NCBI GenBank assembly: GCA_964385055.1
Contig: CAYLMH010000005.1
Location: 2,801 to 66,800 of the forward strand
Length of the DNA stretch: 64,000 nt
Source of the DNA: an uncultured Methanosarcinales archaeon
Lineage (GTDB): Archaea > Nanobdellota > Nanobdellia > Woesearchaeales > DSVV01
Direction: 5' to 3'
The position numbers and the translations under genes are program-made. Of this stretch, positions 1,403 to 60,958 are shown one piece after another. The notes below the pieces were generated by a model, which was given only the letters and a program-made list of their open reading frames with translations, did not search any database and had not been told where the DNA came from. Position 1 is the stretch's first letter. Each line of letters opens with the position of its first letter.

Positions 1403-1478
1403 ATACACGCACCCAACGCATGAACGCGTTGGGGACCCAATTGACCACGTCAAAGAAGGACGTGGTCAATTGGGGTCT
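1403..1478 (+). repeat. Intergenic hairpin module, copy 1
   Basis: ATACACGCAC box at 1403-1412. GGGGACCC is followed by a 16-bp stem CCCAATTGACCACGTC/GACGTGGTCAATTGGG and then GGGGTC. Confidence 0.7.
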
Positions 1479-1584
1479 TTATTAGTAAAAATAATATGTG
1501 ACAATCCAGAAATCAAGAAAAGCTAAAAAGATAAAGAAGAGGGAAACAAACAAGAAAAAATAAAGATTATAAGAGAATTGTATT

Positions 1585-12554: not shown

Positions 12555-14240
12555 CTACATCTCTTCAGGCGCTTCAACACCAAGCAACCGTAACCCATTC
12601 TGAAGCACAATTTTCACAGAAGCAAGTAAATACAAACGAGCAAGCTTCACATCCTCTTCTGCTTTCAAGACAGGAACATCATGGTAATAACTATTGAATT
12701 CCTGACAAAGATCTAATAAATAACGACAGATATACGACGGTTTGTAGTGAGAAGCTGCATCCATAATAATTGCAGGAAATTTCTCAAGTATGCTCGCAAG
12801 CGCAAGCTCACGCTCTCCAAAATGAGAAAGAGAAATATCTAACGCAAGCCCCCCATGCTTTCGCAAGATGCTCGAAATACGCGCATGCGTATATTGGACA
12901 TATGGTCCTGTTTCACCTTCAAAACTCAGACTTTCTTTAGGATTATAGACCATATCTTTTGCAGCGTCAATTTTCAACATGTGAAATTTCAGCGCAGCAA
13001 TCCCAACTTGCCGGCTTCTGTGCTGTAAAATAACTGGTTCAAGATCAGGGTGACGTTTTTGAATTTCTTCTTGAGCAAGGGTTGTTAATTCAGCGATGAG
13101 TGTATCTGCGTCAACAACAGTTCCTTCACGGCTTTTCATCTTTCCTTCTGGAAGATTAACCATCCCATAACTAAGATGATAGCAGCCGTCTGCTGATTTA
13201 TGTCCGAGCTTTTTCAGGATAGCAAACAATTGCTGAAAATGCAAATTCTGCTCAGAACCAACAACATAGATCGATCTATTCAATTTATAATCTTCAAATT
13301 TTTTCAATGCAAGATAAAGATCCTGCGTGATGTAAATCGTTGTACCATCAGAACGAACAAGGACTTTGTCAGGCAAACCAAATTCCTGAAGTGAAGCAAC
13401 AATCGCTCCGTCTTTGTCAAAGAATATTTCCTTCTTAAGTCCCTCTTGCGCAATTTCTTTACCAAAAAGATAAATCTCACTTTCATAATAATATTTGTCA
13501 AAAGAAACACCGAGCTTCGCGTACGTTTGTTCAAAACCCGCATATACCCAGCTATTCATTTTTTTCCAGAGTGCAACAATTTCTTTATCTCCTTTTTCCC
13601 AGAGACGAAGCATCTCCTGCGCTTCTTGTTCAAGTTCAGGATGTTCAGCAGATTTTTTCGCGAAGAGAACATAGAAATCACCGACAAAGAAATCTGATTT
13701 TTTATCAGGATTTTTGTTGTGTCCCCATTTTTTGTAGGCAAGCATGGATTTGCAGATGTGAATCCCACGATCATTCACAAGACATCCTTTGATCACATCG
13801 TTACCAAGGAAAGAAAGAATACGAGAGATACTGTCTCCAAGAGAGATGTTACGAACATGCCCGAGATGAAGCGGTTTGTTGGTGTTTGGACTGGAAAACT
13901 CCACCATAATCTTTTCACCAGACATTTGCTGTCCATATTTTTCTTTTTGCTGCTGAATTTTGTGGAGAACGCTTGTCGAAAGATTTTTTTTATTGAGGTA
14001 AAAATTCACATACGGGCCGTTAGGCATGACTTTATCGAGAAGAGAAGAATCCATTCCGCTCAGTTTTGCGGCAAGGTCATGCGCGATAAGCTGCGGGCTT
14101 TTCTTATGAATCTTAGACAAGGCAAAACAAGGAAATGCAAAATCACCTAATGCGGAGTTTGGAGGAGTCTCCAGTTTTATATCAATATTTTCAGGAACAT
14201 GCTTTTTGAGAAGCACAATAATTGCGTCGGAATAGTTCAT
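12555..14240 (-). CDS. argS: Arginyl-tRNA synthetase
   Basis: Class I HIGH-type motif SPNTNKPLHLGHVRN, ArgRS-like layout and a C-terminal anticodon-binding region ending in M. TATA TTTTATATA lies about 27 nt upstream of the ATG. Confidence 0.9.
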   Translation of the reverse strand: MNYSDAIIVLLKKHVPENIDIKLETPPNSALGDFAFPCFALSKIHKKSPQLIAHDLAAKLSGMDSSLLDKVMPNGPYVNFYLNKKNLSTSVLHKIQQQKEKYGQQMSGEKIMVEFSSPNTNKPLHLGHVRNISLGDSISRILSFLGNDVIKGCLVNDRGIHICKSMLAYKKWGHNKNPDKKSDFFVGDFYVLFAKKSAEHPELEQEAQEMLRLWEKGDKEIVALWKKMNSWVYAGFEQTYAKLGVSFDKYYYESEIYLFGKEIAQEGLKKEIFFDKDGAIVASLQEFGLPDKVLVRSDGTTIYITQDLYLALKKFEDYKLNRSIYVVGSEQNLHFQQLFAILKKLGHKSADGCYHLSYGMVNLPEGKMKSREGTVVDADTLIAELTTLAQEEIQKRHPDLEPVILQHRSRQVGIAALKFHMLKIDAAKDMVYNPKESLSFEGETGPYVQYTHARISSILRKHGGLALDISLSHFGERELALASILEKFPAIIMDAASHYKPSYICRYLLDLCQEFNSYYHDVPVLKAEEDVKLARLYLLASVKIVLQNGLRLLGVEAPEEM

Positions 14241-14324
14241 CAATATTGTGGAGAGAAGGTGGTATATAAAAGTTTCATCGGAGTAATAAGGATCTGAACA
14301 ATTTTAGAAACGCAAAAAAAATAA

Positions 14325-14611
14325 CACAGACGCACCGCTCGTAGGGCATCCCAATCGCAGCAAGCTGCGGAGTATTGCCCACTCGCAATTCGGTGCGTCT
14401 GTGGAATTGTGAAATTGGGTCACAGCAAGCTGTGGGGTATTATTTCGAGCTATGCTCGTAATACTATGGACCTTTGGTCCAAAGTAAACCCAAATTTCAC
14501 AATAACAACAACGATGGCGGCCTACGGCCAAAACACTGGCTTCGCAACAGTATTTTGTCCTACGGGGCACTCCGAAGGAGCCAAACCACGCCCCGTTGGC
14601 GCCACGTTGTT
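14325..14611. ncRNA. Candidate structured ncRNA, unassigned (three consecutive closed helical domains)
   Basis: GC-rich island in AT-rich DNA. Closing stems are 14325-14337/14391-14403 (13 bp perfect), 14406-14420/14488-14503 and 14504-14518/14598-14611. Inner hairpins are nested. An A-run and a T-run flank it. Confidence 0.45.
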
Positions 14612-14640
14612 ATTTTTTATTATCACTGTTTTATTACCCC

Positions 14641-14705
14641 ATACACGCACGAGCAAAAGCCTTAATGTCAGGGGGACCCATTGCACTTGAGTGCAATGGG
14701 GTTAT
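14641..14705 (+). repeat. Intergenic hairpin module, copy 2
   Basis: ATACACGCAC, 16 nt, TGTCAGGGGGACCC, stem CCCATTGCAC/GTGCAATGGG with loop TTGA, then GGGGTTATTATG. Confidence 0.75.
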
Positions 14706-14785
14706 TATGAAAATTCAATGCATGAAATGTTTCTTTGAAAAACATAAGAATGAAGCAAACTAATGAAAGAATAAACAACTAAAAA

Positions 14786-22076: not shown

Positions 22077-22159
22077 GGTTTTCTTTTTTATTTTTTTATT
22101 TCTGATTATTTGATCTTTTGTATTTCTTATCATGTTAATTGTTCTAATTTTTAGTAAAC

Positions 22160-22216
22160 ACACCATTGCTGCTGCAATGGGTCCCCCTGACATTTTGCCT
22201 TTGCAGATGCGTGTTT
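22160..22216 (-). repeat. Intergenic hairpin module, copy 3a (reverse orientation)
   Basis: The reverse complement reads AAACACGCAT, 13 nt, AATGTCAGGGGGACCC, then stem CCATTGC/GCAATGG. Confidence 0.7.
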
Positions 22217-22277
22217 TGTGTTGCCTGGCGTTTGCTACTTATTTAACTGCTTCTTAATCGCCAAGATAACTTTATTG

Positions 22278-22318
22278 CCAGGGGGACCCACGCAACGCGA
22301 AGCATTGCGTGGGGTTTT
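22278..22318 (+). repeat. Intergenic hairpin module, copy 3b (no ACACGCAC box)
   Basis: TTGCCAGGGGGACCC, stem CCCACGCAA/TTGCGTGGG, then GGGGTTTT. Confidence 0.7.
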
Positions 22319-22391
22319 ATGGAAAAAGTATAGTTAAAGTGAACAAAAAGAGTAAAGAACAAAGCAAGAGAGGAAATAACAAAAAACATAA

Positions 22392-32756: not shown

Positions 32757-33338
32757 TTACCAGACATCGTAATGTTCGTTTCCTTTCGTCATAAAGTTCA
32801 ACGTTTCTTTGATAATGTTCATGAGTTCATAAGACTTAAAACGAAGCTTATCTTCCCAAAGCGAGTCAATTTTTTTCTTCCACATGTGCGTCGTGAGGAA
32901 AGACATCATGGTTTTGTGAAGTTTGTTCCTTCCCATACGTTCTGCAAAATCAAACTCTAAACCAGGAGTAATTCGAATAAGAATAAGCCCTCTTTGCAGC
33001 TTTTTTGTTTGACCGTCTTTGACGACCTCAATATCCATCACATCTTGAAACTGAAAGTGAATATTTATCCAATACATAACAAATTCAGTCACCTTTCTGT
33101 GCGCGTTCCAGTCAAAAGAACGTTCTTTGCCGCCTGTTTGCAGCATAATACTTTTGTATTTGGATTCGTGCACTTGATATCCTCTCGAAATAAGCCAGTC
33201 ATGAACAATCTTGTACAGTTCGTTAATATCAAAGACTCCTTTATAGCGAAGAACCTGAGAAAGCGTGTCATCTTTTGCGCCACCGATCTGCCCTTTATCA
33301 AAGCCAGGAGATCGGAGAAATCCTTCCATGCCTGCCAT
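32757..33338 (-). CDS. Hypothetical protein, paralog of 32190-32693
   Basis: LRYKGVFDINELYKIVHDWLISRGY. ATG at 33338 lies about 27 nt downstream of CCTTTATATCC on the minus strand. The ORF track extends to 33416. Confidence 0.6.
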   Translation of the reverse strand: MAGMEGFLRSPGFDKGQIGGAKDDTLSQVLRYKGVFDINELYKIVHDWLISRGYQVHESKYKSIMLQTGGKERSFDWNAHRKVTEFVMYWINIHFQFQDVMDIEVVKDGQTKKLQRGLILIRITPGLEFDFAERMGRNKLHKTMMSFLTTHMWKKKIDSLWEDKLRFKSYELMNIIKETLNFMTKGNEHYDVW

Positions 33339-33418
33339 AAACGAATTTCTGGATGATGATGGATATAAAGGTTTCTGAAACAATAGTAACACAAACAGAA
33401 AATTATGAAACTGCAAAA

Positions 33419-33650
33419 AACAACAACAATGGCACAGACGGTCTTGTCGCTTTGCTCCAAGCCCTACTCCGCGAACGAGAACACCTCACTTCGTAAGGCA
33501 ACCTCGTTCGCTCCGTCTGGCCATGTTGTTTTTTGCTTCTTCAAACCCGCCGCTGGCGCACGACGCGACGGGGGACGCCCCACCGGGGTGTCGCGTAGGA
33601 CGTGGAACGAAGTGACACGGCCGTCGTGCCGCCTGCTGCGGCGGGTGGTT
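33419..33650. ncRNA. Candidate structured ncRNA, unassigned (two closed helical domains)
   Basis: GC-rich island between two divergent promoters. Domain 1 is 33419-33534: a long terminal stem with an inner perfect 9-bp GCGAACGAG/CTCGTTCGC. Domain 2 is 33545-33646: ACCCGCCGC/GCGGCGGGT and GGCGCACGACG/CGTCGTGCCGCC enclosing two hairpins. Confidence 0.5.
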
Positions 33651-33684
33651 CAAAAGTATTAACGAATAAGGACACTATTTTACA

Positions 33685-33697
33685 ATAAATATAAAAG
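33685..33697 (+). promoter_or_regulatory. TATA box of hisS (near-leaderless)
   Basis: ATAAATATAAAAG is centred about 29 nt upstream of ATG 33720. Confidence 0.5.
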
Positions 33698-33719
33698 CAA
33701 GCGACGCATAACAATATTC

Positions 33720-35036
33720 ATGACCAAACTCACCCTCCTCAACGCAAAAGGAACACGAGACTTTCCCCCTGAAGAACAAATTCTCAGAAGTAAAATTCAA
33801 AACATCCTAGTAGAGACATTCGAACTTTATGGATTCTCCCCATTGGAAACACCAGTTCTTGAACGATTTGACATTCTTTCCAGCAAATATGCAGGAGGAG
33901 CAGAAATTCTTAAAGAAACCTTCAAACTCACGGATCAAGGGAAAAGAGAACTCGCGCTACGATATGATCTTACTGTTCCATTATGCAGATTTATTGGCAT
34001 GACTCCTTCAATCAAATTTCCGTTCAAACGCTATCAAATCGGAACAGTCTACAGAGATGGCCCTGTTGCGTCAGATCGTTTAAGAGTCTTCACCCAATGC
34101 GACGTGGATATTGTTGGCGCGAAAAGCATGGCAGCAGACGCAGAGTGCATCAAGCTCGCGGAATTTGTATTCAAAAAACTCAAAATCAAAGCAACCCTTG
34201 AACTGAATAATAGAAAATTCCTTGACGGATTATTAGAAGATCTTGATGTTCCTGAAGCAAAGTGGGTAGACTGCATTCTTGTCATTGATAAAATGAAAAA
34301 GATTGAGCAGAAACAAATGGAAGAAGAACTCAAACAAGTTGGTCTTGAAAAAGAGCAGATCAGCAGACTTCTCAAAATTCTAAAAGAAACAAAAGGAACA
34401 AATGAAGAAAAGATAAAAGCGCTCAAGAAACAACTCAAGGGCAAGCAAAGCAATGAAGGGCTTGCGGAGATAGAACAAGTTCTTGCAGCAATTCCTGACG
34501 CAGACAAAAGAAATATTTTATTCATGCCAACATTAGCGCGAGGTCTTGCATACTACACAGGAACGGTCTATGAAGCAGTGCCAATGGACAGCGACATTCA
34601 TTCTTCAATCGCCTCTGGTGGCAGATATGACAAAATGATCGGACAATTTTTAGGAACAAAACTCGAATATCCTGCAGTAGGCATGAGCTTTGGGTTGGAC
34701 CGATTATATATCATCCTTGAAGCACGAGAAAAAGATAAAATAAAAACAATTACAGAAGTGCTCGTTATTCCTATTAACGCGAAGAAAGAAGCAGAAGAGC
34801 TTGCACGAAAACTTCGGGAAGCTGGCATAAAGACAGAAACAGATATCATGGAACGCGGTCCTTCAAAAAATTTGCAGTATGCGGATTCTTTAAAAATTCC
34901 TTTTGTCCTGTTTGTAGGAGAAGAGGAAGTGAAGGCAAAAAAGTTCAAACTCAAAGAGATGAGTAGTGGAAAAGAGTATAGCGAAACTGTTGATGGGATT
35001 GTTGAGAAGATTAAAGAGCGCAGAAAAGAAGAGTAA
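33720..35036 (+). CDS. hisS: Histidyl-tRNA synthetase
   Basis: GTRDFPPEE, class II motif 2 (RYDLTVPLCRF..FKRYQIGTVYRDGP) and motif 3 (GMSFGLDRL). Confidence 0.9.
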   Translation: MTKLTLLNAKGTRDFPPEEQILRSKIQNILVETFELYGFSPLETPVLERFDILSSKYAGGAEILKETFKLTDQGKRELALRYDLTVPLCRFIGMTPSIKFPFKRYQIGTVYRDGPVASDRLRVFTQCDVDIVGAKSMAADAECIKLAEFVFKKLKIKATLELNNRKFLDGLLEDLDVPEAKWVDCILVIDKMKKIEQKQMEEELKQVGLEKEQISRLLKILKETKGTNEEKIKALKKQLKGKQSNEGLAEIEQVLAAIPDADKRNILFMPTLARGLAYYTGTVYEAVPMDSDIHSSIASGGRYDKMIGQFLGTKLEYPAVGMSFGLDRLYIILEAREKDKIKTITEVLVIPINAKKEAEELARKLREAGIKTETDIMERGPSKNLQYADSLKIPFVLFVGEEEVKAKKFKLKEMSSGKEYSETVDGIVEKIKERRKEE

Positions 35037-43941: not shown

Positions 43942-44002
43942 ATACACGCACTAGAAAACCTTTTACTGTCAGGGGGACCCATTGCGTGAGCAATGGGGTT
44001 TT
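43942..44002 (+). repeat. Intergenic hairpin module, copy 4
   Basis: ATACACGCAC, 15 nt, CTGTCAGGGGGACCC, stem CCCATTGC/GCAATGGG with loop GTGA, then GGGGTTTTG. Confidence 0.75.
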
Positions 44003-44070
44003 GTTATATTTTTAATAGAACATAATGAAAAATCAGGAACAAAAAGAATATAAAAAAATCAAAAAATCAA

Positions 44071-44524: not shown

Positions 44525-45148
44525 ATGGTCTACGTTGTGCAGCCGACAACAAGGATACTTTTTTCTATGGTTCTTGAAGACACAGCAGTGCAGGATTTTC
44601 TTGAAACAATGAAGAGACATCACGCAGATACTGCGCTTCACTCGAAAAGAGTAGGGGTATATACTCTGGATATATATGTCACAAAACACATGGCAACGGA
44701 AAGCGGTATAATCGTCATAACACAAGACAATCTCAGCGAAGCATTACGCTGGGGTGCTGCGGGAGTATATCATGATGCAGGAAAATTATTAACTCCTGTT
44801 GAAATATTAGCAAAGCCAGGAAAGCTCGATGAGAAAGAAAGAGCAAGAATGAATAGGCATCCTCTCCTTGGACTTCAGATTTTAGATGAGTATACAAGAG
44901 ATGAAGCAGCGTATCATGCTGCAGTAGGACACCATGAATATAAAACAGGAGCATCATATCCACGACACAAAAGAAGAGGGGAAGATGAACTTGTCGAAGC
45001 AGTTGCGCTTGCGGATTTCTACGATGCGCTGGCAAGTAAACGAGGATACAAACCGGCATTTTCAAAAGATGAAATAGAACGAATAATGCACGAAGAATTT
45101 AATGGAAACCCACAACATCTTGATGAACTTTTAAGAAGATCTGCATAA
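44525..45148 (+). CDS. HD-GYP-type phosphohydrolase
   Basis: HSKRVG, YHDAGKLLTP, RMNRHP and GHHEYKTGASYPR (an HHExxxGxxYP variant). Confidence 0.7.
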   Translation: MVYVVQPTTRILFSMVLEDTAVQDFLETMKRHHADTALHSKRVGVYTLDIYVTKHMATESGIIVITQDNLSEALRWGAAGVYHDAGKLLTPVEILAKPGKLDEKERARMNRHPLLGLQILDEYTRDEAAYHAAVGHHEYKTGASYPRHKRRGEDELVEAVALADFYDALASKRGYKPAFSKDEIERIMHEEFNGNPQHLDELLRRSA

Positions 45149-45359
45149 CACGGAAACGCCACTTACATTATGCTCGTCTATCCCATGCCTTTAGGCATGG
45201 GTTTTACGGCTTGCAAACTAATGGTGGCGTTTCCGTGGGATGTAAAATCGGCGCTTACGGAATCTCTGCGCTACATCCTCGCACTAAATGCGCAAAACTC
45301 GTTTTGCGTATATTACAAATCGCAGATTTGAAATAGTGCAAGGTTTTGCGCCGATTTTT
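45149..45359. ncRNA. Structured GC-rich element in a convergent gap (ncRNA or compound bidirectional terminator)
   Basis: 14-bp stem CACGGAAACGCCAC/GTGGCGTTTCCGTG (45149-45162/45224-45237) encloses CCCATGCC/GGCATGGG. AAAATCGGCGC (45244-45254) pairs with GCGCCGATTTT (45348-45358) around further hairpins. Confidence 0.4.
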
Positions 45360-50849: not shown

Positions 50850-50977
50850 ACGTATTTGCTTACACGCACCAGCAACGCTTCTCTGTAGTCTAGCATCGCA
50901 AAAAGTATCTTTATATTTTTATTAAAAGAAATCAAGAAAAGACATTTAAACTTCCCGAAAATTATACTTATTATATT

Positions 50978-60772: not shown

Positions 60773-60840
60773 TTTTTTTACTATTTTATTTCTTCTTATT
60801 CTTTTTTTTCATACCACCACGTTTTTCTAGTTTAAAGTCC

Positions 60841-60905
60841 ACACACAATCGCTTAGTTTGCTTGAATGTCAGGGGGACCCAATTTACCAAAGTAAATTGG
60901 GGTTA
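60841..60905 (+). repeat. Intergenic hairpin module, copy 5
   Basis: ACACACAATCGC variant box, AATGTCAGGGGGACCC, stem CCCAATTTAC/GTAAATTGGG with loop CAAA, then GGGGTTATTATG. Confidence 0.75.
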
Positions 60906-60958
60906 TTATGAAAAGAAAATGCAAAATAATAAATGAAAAAGAATAAACAAAAAAGAAA

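Follow-up and report, generated by a model that had tools for sequence, protein, structure and literature searches.

The GC-rich island that precedes hisS in the DNA examined here (a stretch of 64,000 nucleotides, hereafter the window) consists of two inverted, head-to-head copies of a multi-copy structured repeat unit and forms the core of a block recently inserted at this locus. The family to which they belong, apparently not described before, is probably one of REP/BIME/MITE-like repeats that are structured and non-autonomous. As a structured repeat family it is well supported in Woesearchaeota-like archaea, and no description of it was found in the literature searched.

The source organism is a DPANN archaeon, whose top hisS matches in the genome collection are Nanoarchaeota/Woesearchaeota MAGs with no more than 56% identity. 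The island separates a gene for a 193-aa protein without Pfam match (minus strand) from hisS (plus strand). As a GC-rich structured region at 33419-33650 it was correctly predicted from the sequence. The GC content in 200-nt windows is 0.56 at 33419-33650 against 0.30-0.45 in the surroundings, the peak in 80 nt (0.75) is the highest of the 64-kb window (0.387 overall), and the fold of 33415-33655 has an energy of -109.5 kcal/mol on the plus strand (z -4.76) and of -115.7 kcal/mol on the minus strand (z -5.89), each against 200 dinucleotide shuffles. The helices described are present as well. A repeat finder returned the perfect inner 9-bp stem of domain 1 (33471-33479/33503-33511) and the outer stem of domain 2, ACCCGCCGC/GCGGCGGGT (33545-33553/33638-33646), together with a 20-nt terminal inverted repeat (33406-33425/33524-33543) that stretches domain 1 to 33406-33543; the T6 run of domain 1 lies at 33529-33534, and domain 2 is indeed Y-shaped. 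The island was also rightly placed between two TATA-like boxes, both of which are kept in relatives, and outside either flanking mRNA as normally drawn. There is no credible ORF in the 296-bp block that contains it.

The original prediction of one two-domain element was right in that the element is structured, non-coding and composed of two domains, but it is not a single RNA gene, because the domains are inverted copies of one unit; being inverted relative to each other, they cannot both be given in the folded sense by one transcript. A covariance model (R1), built from ten domain-1-type units (metagenomic homologues), matches both domains of the hisS locus, on opposite strands, and a third copy at 14495-14623 of the window. 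The suggested affinity to an SRP S domain was not confirmed: no SRP model of Rfam matched at a threshold as loose as E<=10, the nearest relatives have an empty site, several copies of the unit exist, and AGGACGUGGAACGAAGUGAC, which had been compared with an SRP motif, belongs to the repeat family, where it spans the conserved GUAGG junction and hairpin A', and is not SRP helix 8. The reading of 33419-33650 as an SRP-like or otherwise unique RNA gene does not hold.

Graded relatives were gathered by hisS protein search. The closest ones that keep the same upstream gene are L081/L082 (hisS 93% identical) and L087/L088 (87%), in which the spacer between that gene and hisS is about 88 nt long and uninterrupted, with the sequence ...GGATATAAAGGTTTCTG(T/A)AACAA(T/A)A(A/G)ATATAAAAGC... 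at the empty site. The L081 sequence, ...GGATATAAAGGTTTCTGTAACAATAAATATAAAAGCAAGC...ATG, is found split in the window, as ...GGTTTCTGAAACAATA / 33386-33681 / ACAATAAATATAAAAGCAAGC.... The inserted block therefore measures 296 bp and has a 6-bp direct repeat, ACAATA, on both flanks, while L081/L082 contain a single ACAATA copy (...CTGTAACAATAAATATAAAAGC...). MAFFT placed the gap slightly differently; the junction is nonetheless unambiguous because of a 21-nt identity on the right side, where the L081 empty site matches window 33682-33702 (ACAATAAATATAAAAGCAAGC) at every position. The block is absent beside either flanking gene in L083 (81%) and L085 (74%), and the element was found neither in the first 80 hisS loci by BLAST/nhmmer nor in 33 archaeal hisS neighbourhoods by model R1. 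By this comparison, the block was inserted recently between two divergent promoters, which it would have pushed 300 bp apart. Because of the duplicated ACAATA the hisS TATA box would still be preceded by the same bases, and with both TATA boxes intact the consequence of the insertion at the hisS locus was probably neutral. The features of this locus, and the third family unit of the window, are as follows.

33361..33371, minus strand: TATA-like box of the 193-aa gene, outside the insert (GGATATAAAGG kept in L081, L087 and L088)
33380..33385, no strand: left ACAATA direct repeat (target-site duplication or recombination core), single copy in L081/L082
33386..33409, no strand: AT-rich left arm of the block (GTAACACAAACAGAAAATTATGAA), missing from empty sites
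33410..33542, minus strand: repeat unit 1 (domain 1), three-way junction; model R1 137.9 bits, E 5e-32, the unit being part of the model training
33529..33534, plus strand: T6 run, 3' strand of the outermost A-run/T-run helix of unit 1, pairing with A6 at 33415-33420
33542..33646, plus strand: repeat unit 2 (domain 2), in the opposite orientation to unit 1; R1 score 31.7 bits, E 1.3e-5, the unit being outside the model training
33647..33681, no strand: AT-rich right arm of the block, missing from empty sites
33682..33687, no strand: right ACAATA direct repeat, abutting the hisS TATA box (by comparison with the L081 empty site)
33685..33697, plus strand: TATA-like box of hisS, outside the insert (ATAAATATAAAAG in L081; GATATAAAAG in L088 and L083)
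14495..14623, minus strand: third family unit (unit B), in the region upstream of argS; R1 score 35.0 bits, E 2e-6

Two further observations concern the DNA upstream of hisS. In some distant DPANN relatives a tRNA is encoded directly upstream of hisS on the same strand (L009, 3893-3964; L018, 3895-3966; L060, 3911-3982; L028, 3892-3965), which in L009, L018 and L060 is tRNA-His with anticodon GUG; the window and its close relatives have no tRNA at this place, and the block contains none. Moreover, the conserved spacer CUGGAUGAUGAUGGAUAUAAAGGUUUCUGA (window 33345-33380, present also in L081, L087 and L088) includes a C-box-like UGAUGA and a D-box-like CUGA, and gave weak C/D snoRNA matches (E 1.4-4.9). 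This spacer and the TATA box of the 193-aa gene overlap, and it is probably nothing more than promoter sequence.

In unit 1, a terminal helix (33406-33441 with 33514-33543) encloses hairpin B' (33471-33511) and hairpin A' (33440-33463), and CCTAC at 33463-33467 is the junction, GUAGG when read on the minus strand; the unit folds with -66.4 kcal/mol on the minus strand against -53.0 on the plus strand. Its homologues include L215, L216 and L227, and covariation is seen. Unit 2 is formed by an outer helix (ACCCGCCGC/GCGGCGGGT) and an inner one (GGCGCACGACG/CGTCGTGCCGCC), followed inwards by hairpin B' (about 33566-33594), GUAGG (33595-33599) and hairpin A' (33598-33623). The two units are on opposite strands, head-to-head, with their 5' ends 10 nt apart, and this inverted-copy arrangement explains why the two domains share a 9-nt complementarity and why an alternative long-range fold exists. 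At the ends of the complete block there are no terminal inverted repeats. No further copies of its AT-rich arms were found, the right arm being without another copy in the window; a piece of the left arm, ACACAAACAG, was found again on the same side of a unit in L246, and a (C)A(A/G)TAGTA-like motif is recurrent on the left-arm side of many units. The 6-bp direct repeat ACAATA, a candidate target duplication, flanks the sole insertion with both junctions defined, and no direct repeats are evident around single units at other loci.

Unit B and domain 1 share their ends, AACAACAAC(G/A)ATGGC...GCCA(C/T)GTTGTT, with 6 matches against 0.21 expected. When metagenome contigs were scanned with the paired end motif, 47 loci were obtained, about 24 of which are clear GC-rich homologues in contigs of 29-40% GC; 12 homologues come from 8 contigs (29-257 kb) of one single metagenome. 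Archaeal markers, namely CTP-dependent riboflavin kinase, archaeal-type riboflavin synthase and DUF655, are located near units. Model R1 yielded 32 units, located in the window, in the contig of one relative and in metagenome contigs of low GC, several of which have archaeal marker genes; the copies counted for the source genome are those within the 64-kb window. The pair arrangement of the hisS locus recurs in L251, where a second unit with the ACCCGCCGC/GCGGCGGGT outer helix comes after a domain-1-type unit, and L227 also holds an inverted pair; many other units are single.

Read along the better-folding strand, a unit consists of the 5' strand of the terminal helix, hairpin B', (G/A)UAGG, hairpin A', the 3' strand of the terminal helix, GUUGUU and a U-run, with a length of about 100-135 nt (95-99 nt in the miniature units of L211). 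The terminal helix, 25-35 bp long, has a conserved core (AACAAC-AUGGCC-AGACGG / CCGUCU-G-U-GCCAU-Y-GUUGUU), an A-run at its outer end and one or two extrahelical bases in its 3' strand. Hairpin A' is characterized by a purine-purine mismatch near the base, tandem G.A pairs (GA/GA) and mostly a C-GAA-G triloop, and in 30 of the 32 units single-stranded (G/A)UAGG stands directly 5' of it.

The common fold is evident from the comparison of the copies, which points to selection for it. Among the 32 units, aligned by fitting to the model so that the pairing figures lean towards structure, standard pairs occupy 95% of cells and 35 of 48 pairs have changes on both sides; none of 500 shuffles reached any observed pairing measure, and only 40-60% of cells were paired when the 3' partner was slid. 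An independent run, RNAalifold on a MAFFT alignment, gave compensatory changes for 18 of 48 pairs. Even the outermost A/T-rich helix covaries (GCAAAAAATAAC/GTTATTTTTTGC, GAAAATTTTAAC/GTTAAAATTTTC, GGAAAAATCC/GGATTTTTCC). The fold is also strand-specific. On the GUAGG strand, G.U occupies 74 cells in 20 columns versus 13 cells in 5 columns for A.C (9 of these 13 from one doubtful pair), and all 32 units are more stable on the GUAGG strand than on its complement, the mean difference being -8.2 kcal/mol when RNA parameters are used and -3.05 for DNA parameters; owing to shared ancestry the 32 units are not independent trials, but the direction is uniform across subfamilies.

Two observations at single sites may be added. 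The near-identical orthologous units L220 3960-4064 and L236 2821-2925 have the apical loop of hairpin A exactly inverted (GTTGCGAAGCC vs GGCTTCGCAAC), a flip-flop of the kind that hairpins or cruciforms in DNA typically undergo; the event took place in a hairpin at the DNA level. At window 45145-45238, a 14-bp terminal helix (CACGGAAACGCCAC/GTGGCGTTTCCGTG) surrounds the hairpin CCCATGCC-TTT-AGGCATGGG; model R1 matches it weakly (14.5 bits, E 0.25).

The units are always intergenic and are found in divergent, convergent and tandem settings, in either orientation; in tandem settings, 8 of 12 are sense and 4 of 12 antisense to the flanking genes. No TATA-like box was found at a fixed distance upstream of units. 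At the hisS locus each unit lies upstream of the TATA box of the gene it faces, and since the 5' ends are only 10 nt apart there is no room for a promoter at either unit. L211 670-9628 has four miniature units within 9 kb of a 30% GC archaeal contig; small units are placed between consecutive riboflavin genes in both orientations, touching stop and start codons, and two of them tightly flank a riboflavin-synthase-type gene in the riboflavin operon, with a short tandem repeat, aattaagaataaattaaacaaaatt, beside one unit. The 162-aa ORF between inverted L211 units, considered as a transposase, is this riboflavin-synthase-type protein, and the 438-aa ORF adjoining a unit in L246, considered as hisS, is not hisS.

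A second polymorphic locus is that of argS (window 12555-14243, minus strand). The region upstream of it, about 14313-14620, is GC-rich and contains three structured domains (fold z -7.6 and -7.9): unit A (14325-14403), a plus-strand GUAGG unit without hairpin B'; a middle domain (14406-14502) enclosing three hairpins; and unit B, whose homologues are L229, L220 and L236. The hairpin UC(G/A)CAGCAAGCUG(C/U)GG(A/G)GUAUU occurs twice in the region, with one compensatory change. In the relative L258 (90%) the DNA upstream of argS carries a domain-1-type unit (121.9 bits) of another subtype, in the orientation to argS opposite to that of unit B, and in L259 and L260 (81-82%) there is no unit upstream of argS. 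Presence and absence of units thus vary at two loci, hisS and argS.

REP, BIME and REPIN elements are bacterial, GTAG-tagged repetitive extragenic palindromes mobilized by RAYT transposases of the Y1-HUH type. They (PMC3733652) are the closest known kind, beside repeats of the ERIC/Correia type. The archaeal family shares with them the multi-copy, GC-rich, intergenic palindromic nature, an unpaired (G)UAG(G) directly 5' of a GC-rich hairpin with a mismatch, frequent inverted pairs and mosaics with other hairpin modules, a location between and inside operons in either orientation, a strand-specific fold with G.T/G.U pairs, and presence or absence among close relatives. (G/A)UAGG immediately precedes hairpin A' in 30 of 32 units, although this hairpin is embedded in a much larger three-way-junction unit, and head-to-head pairs comparable to the inverted dimers of REP/REPIN-RAYT systems are found at window 33410-33646, L251 and L227. 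Unlike REPs, which are single hairpins of 20-40 nt, the archaeal units are 100-135 nt long, with a three-way junction in a 25-35-bp helix; their host is an archaeon (DPANN), no RAYT was found among the best 25 of 54 Pfam families or by motif scan in 64 kb of genome, and the one defined insertion has a 6-bp direct repeat.

ERIC (IRU), Correia (NEMIS) and other MITE-like palindromes of 100-160 bp are similar in size, and have in common with the family the long terminal inverted repeats giving a long hairpin, the intergenic location including promoter regions, the insertion polymorphism and the direct repeat at the insertion. Each unit has inverted termini of 25-35 nt with a conserved core, whereas the whole 296-bp block has none, and the family is multi-copy (32 units), non-coding and polymorphic at the hisS and argS loci. 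It differs from the MITE-like palindromes in that its outer terminal helix covaries between copies, which argues for pairing and not for a fixed transposase-binding terminal inverted repeat, in that its interior is a conserved two-hairpin junction with strand asymmetry, and in that no parent IS with the same ends is present among the retrieved loci. On account of its REP/ERIC-type likeness, the lack of a prior description in the literature searched and the failure of the attC and known-RNA tests, the family is therefore filed among the small structured intergenic repeats, a known kind.

On this reading as mobile repeats, the units would be non-autonomous DNA moved in trans, the folded single strand serving as the substrate of a trans-acting recombinase or transposase, with insertion at A/T-rich, CAATA-like sites. 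The conserved, bulge-bearing terminal helix and the UAGG junction are likely to be protein recognition features. A mini-hairpin of the d(GCGAAGC) type is exceptionally stable in DNA; because the C-GAA-G triloops match it, and because no promoters are found, the folded form is more likely to be ssDNA than RNA. Searches for the enzyme gave no transposase or integrase among the best 25 of 54 Pfam families for the 56 window ORFs, and a crude (regex) scan for Y1/HUH motifs in the window and most retrieved loci was empty. Nor was there an autonomous IS with the ends of the family: every end-motif match in the retrieved DPANN-like loci was a small unit, and the few matches with one mismatch, in unrelated viral loci, seem fortuitous. 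Phage and plasmid collections, searched by BLAST, returned chance fragments only, while IMG/VR scans gave chance matches in GC-rich phages for the outer domain-2 stem, and one chance coding match or nothing for the family end motifs. One survey counts a Woesearchaeal genome among the archaeal genomes with the highest MITE density (PMC11602168).

Several points speak against this explanation. No transposase or recombinase was linked to the family within the searches made, only one insertion has both junctions defined, single units are without visible target duplication, and the inserted block is without terminal inverted repeats of its own. In addition, the units are 3-4 times larger than REPs and more elaborate, and the compensatory changes of L229 vs L220/L236, together with the conserved strand asymmetry, would be just as compatible with an RNA function in the host.

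The last point leads to a different and rather unlikely explanation, namely that the units are multi-copy small structured RNAs or cis-acting RNA modules, with GUAGG in the sense strand. They might be protein-binding scaffolds, or stabilizing, processing or termination elements for neighbouring transcripts, in which case an inverted pair would supply one sense copy for either direction of transcription. The strand-specific fold with G.U pairs, G.A tandems and some GNRA-like loops, and the strong covariation, seen also between orthologous copies, are what such RNAs would present; the A-run/T-run ends could serve as archaeal oligo-T terminators both ways, and 8 of the 12 units in tandem context are sense. 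However, the other 4 are antisense, no promoter is conserved at a fixed distance, and at the hisS locus, which is empty in the closest relatives, the units are upstream of the TATA boxes, with 5' ends 10 nt apart and no promoter room. The inversion of the hairpin-A loop between L220 and L236 would also be hardly tolerable for a sequence-specific RNA loop.

It is likewise fairly improbable that the family represents a new kind of element in DPANN archaea that folds strand-specifically and is marked by a three-way junction with a sequence-conserved, bulge-bearing terminal helix, by the UAGG junction and by C-GAA-G mini-hairpins. As such it could be a mobile structured RNA with a host function, or else ssDNA recognized by an archaeal HUH or tyrosine recombinase system of a novel sort. 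Such a recombinase system would be an archaeal counterpart of REPIN-RAYT acting on a much more elaborate substrate.

Integron attC sites carry R'' and R' boxes (RYYYAAC and GTTRRRY) and form arrays of sites in the same orientation after cassette ORFs. That the units are ssDNA-folded recombination sites of this type, or relics of gene cassettes, might be suggested by their size (95-135 nt), their ends (AAC...GTT), the ssDNA-type imperfect palindrome with extrahelical bases on one strand of the terminal helix, and the variable, branched tip; integrons and attC clusters are on record in Nanoarchaeota (PMC9668308). This explanation is very improbable and was rejected on consensus and context. The ends AACAAC/GTTGTT fall outside the consensus boxes, the units stand alone or as inverted pairs between housekeeping genes and do not form same-orientation arrays at cassette ORF ends, they are mid-block rather than at the end of the inserted block, and their interior with the UAGG junction is conserved. 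No integrase was seen among the best 25 of 54 Pfam families for the window ORFs.

Virtually no likelihood is left for a single-copy essential RNA gene (SRP S-domain-like, RNase P, 5S rRNA or an unusual tRNA-His) missed by standard models in DPANN, which is refuted for practical purposes in spite of the GC-rich island in an AT-rich genome, the Y-shaped topology with a GGAA-containing hairpin, the tRNA-His(GUG) exactly upstream of hisS in several distant relatives, and the 5S-like three-way junction with GGAGUAGG on the minus strand of domain 1: there is no Rfam match at E<=10 and no tRNA with relaxed ARAGORN, the nearest relatives are without the element at the site, the unit is multi-copy with highly variable hairpins, and both domains are inverted copies of one family. 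The Rfam check that had been proposed, with SRP, RNase P and other models, gave no relevant match: Rfam 15 had none for the whole window at the gathering score, and at E<=10 with permissive filters the region 33300-33760 gave no SRP, RNase P, 5S or tRNA, but only the weak C/D snoRNA-like matches in the promoter region. The one tRNA that ARAGORN found in the window is a tRNA-Ser at 50977; when introns were allowed and thresholds lowered, it found no tRNA or split tRNA-His at the locus, its sole call being an implausible tRNA-Met with an 82-nt intron. 5S rRNA was discarded for the minus strand of domain 1 (three-way junction, GGAGUAGG, GAAGUG) for want of an Rfam match and for its multiple copies and variable hairpins, and SRP RNA as a single conserved essential gene because the site is empty at 93% and 87% hisS identity and the family is multi-copy. 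What the element has in common with the archaeal SRP S domain is a long helix around two hairpins, one with a GGAA-containing tip; it differs in having no covariance-model match, in not being conserved in relatives and in its copy number. It is the GUAGG junction of the family, with the GA...GA hairpin, that recalls the helix 8 motif.

A false lead is thereby removed: the island at the hisS locus does not represent an SRP or RNase P RNA missing from a DPANN genome. The family now has a covariance model, a pair of empty and filled sites, and at least two companion hairpin families. Repeats of this kind can confound GC-based searches for non-coding RNA in AT-rich genomes, break assemblies and mark recent genome rearrangements, and should a dedicated enzyme be found, the family would provide an archaeal analogue of the REPIN-RAYT relationship.

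The companion hairpins, which together with the units form a mosaic recalling bacterial BIMEs, are of two kinds. The first is a second repeat family of about 70 nt, composed of ACACGCAC, 20-25 nt, GUCAGGGGGACCC, a variable covarying stem-loop and GGGGUU(A/U)U (in another rendering, ACACGCAC...CAGGGGGACCC-hairpin-GGGGUU). Its 16-mer has 8 matches against 0.28 expected. Six copies are in the window, including an inverted pair at 22.2 kb:

1403-1483 (plus strand), 14640-14712 (plus), 22140-22215 (minus), 22265-22325 (plus), 43944-44005 (plus), 60838-60912 (plus): second-family copies; also L258 150-225

This second family is linked to a first-family unit both in the window and in the relative L258. 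The third module, absent from the window, comes directly after a unit in L216, L250, L256, L246 (two sites) and L215, and consists of the hairpin CGCACAAG(G/A)(U/C)CGAAC...GUGAG(A/G)(C/U)CUUGUGCG, followed by the hairpin GACGCGAGCAUUUGUCGAGCGUC with tandem G.A pairs and by a T-run.
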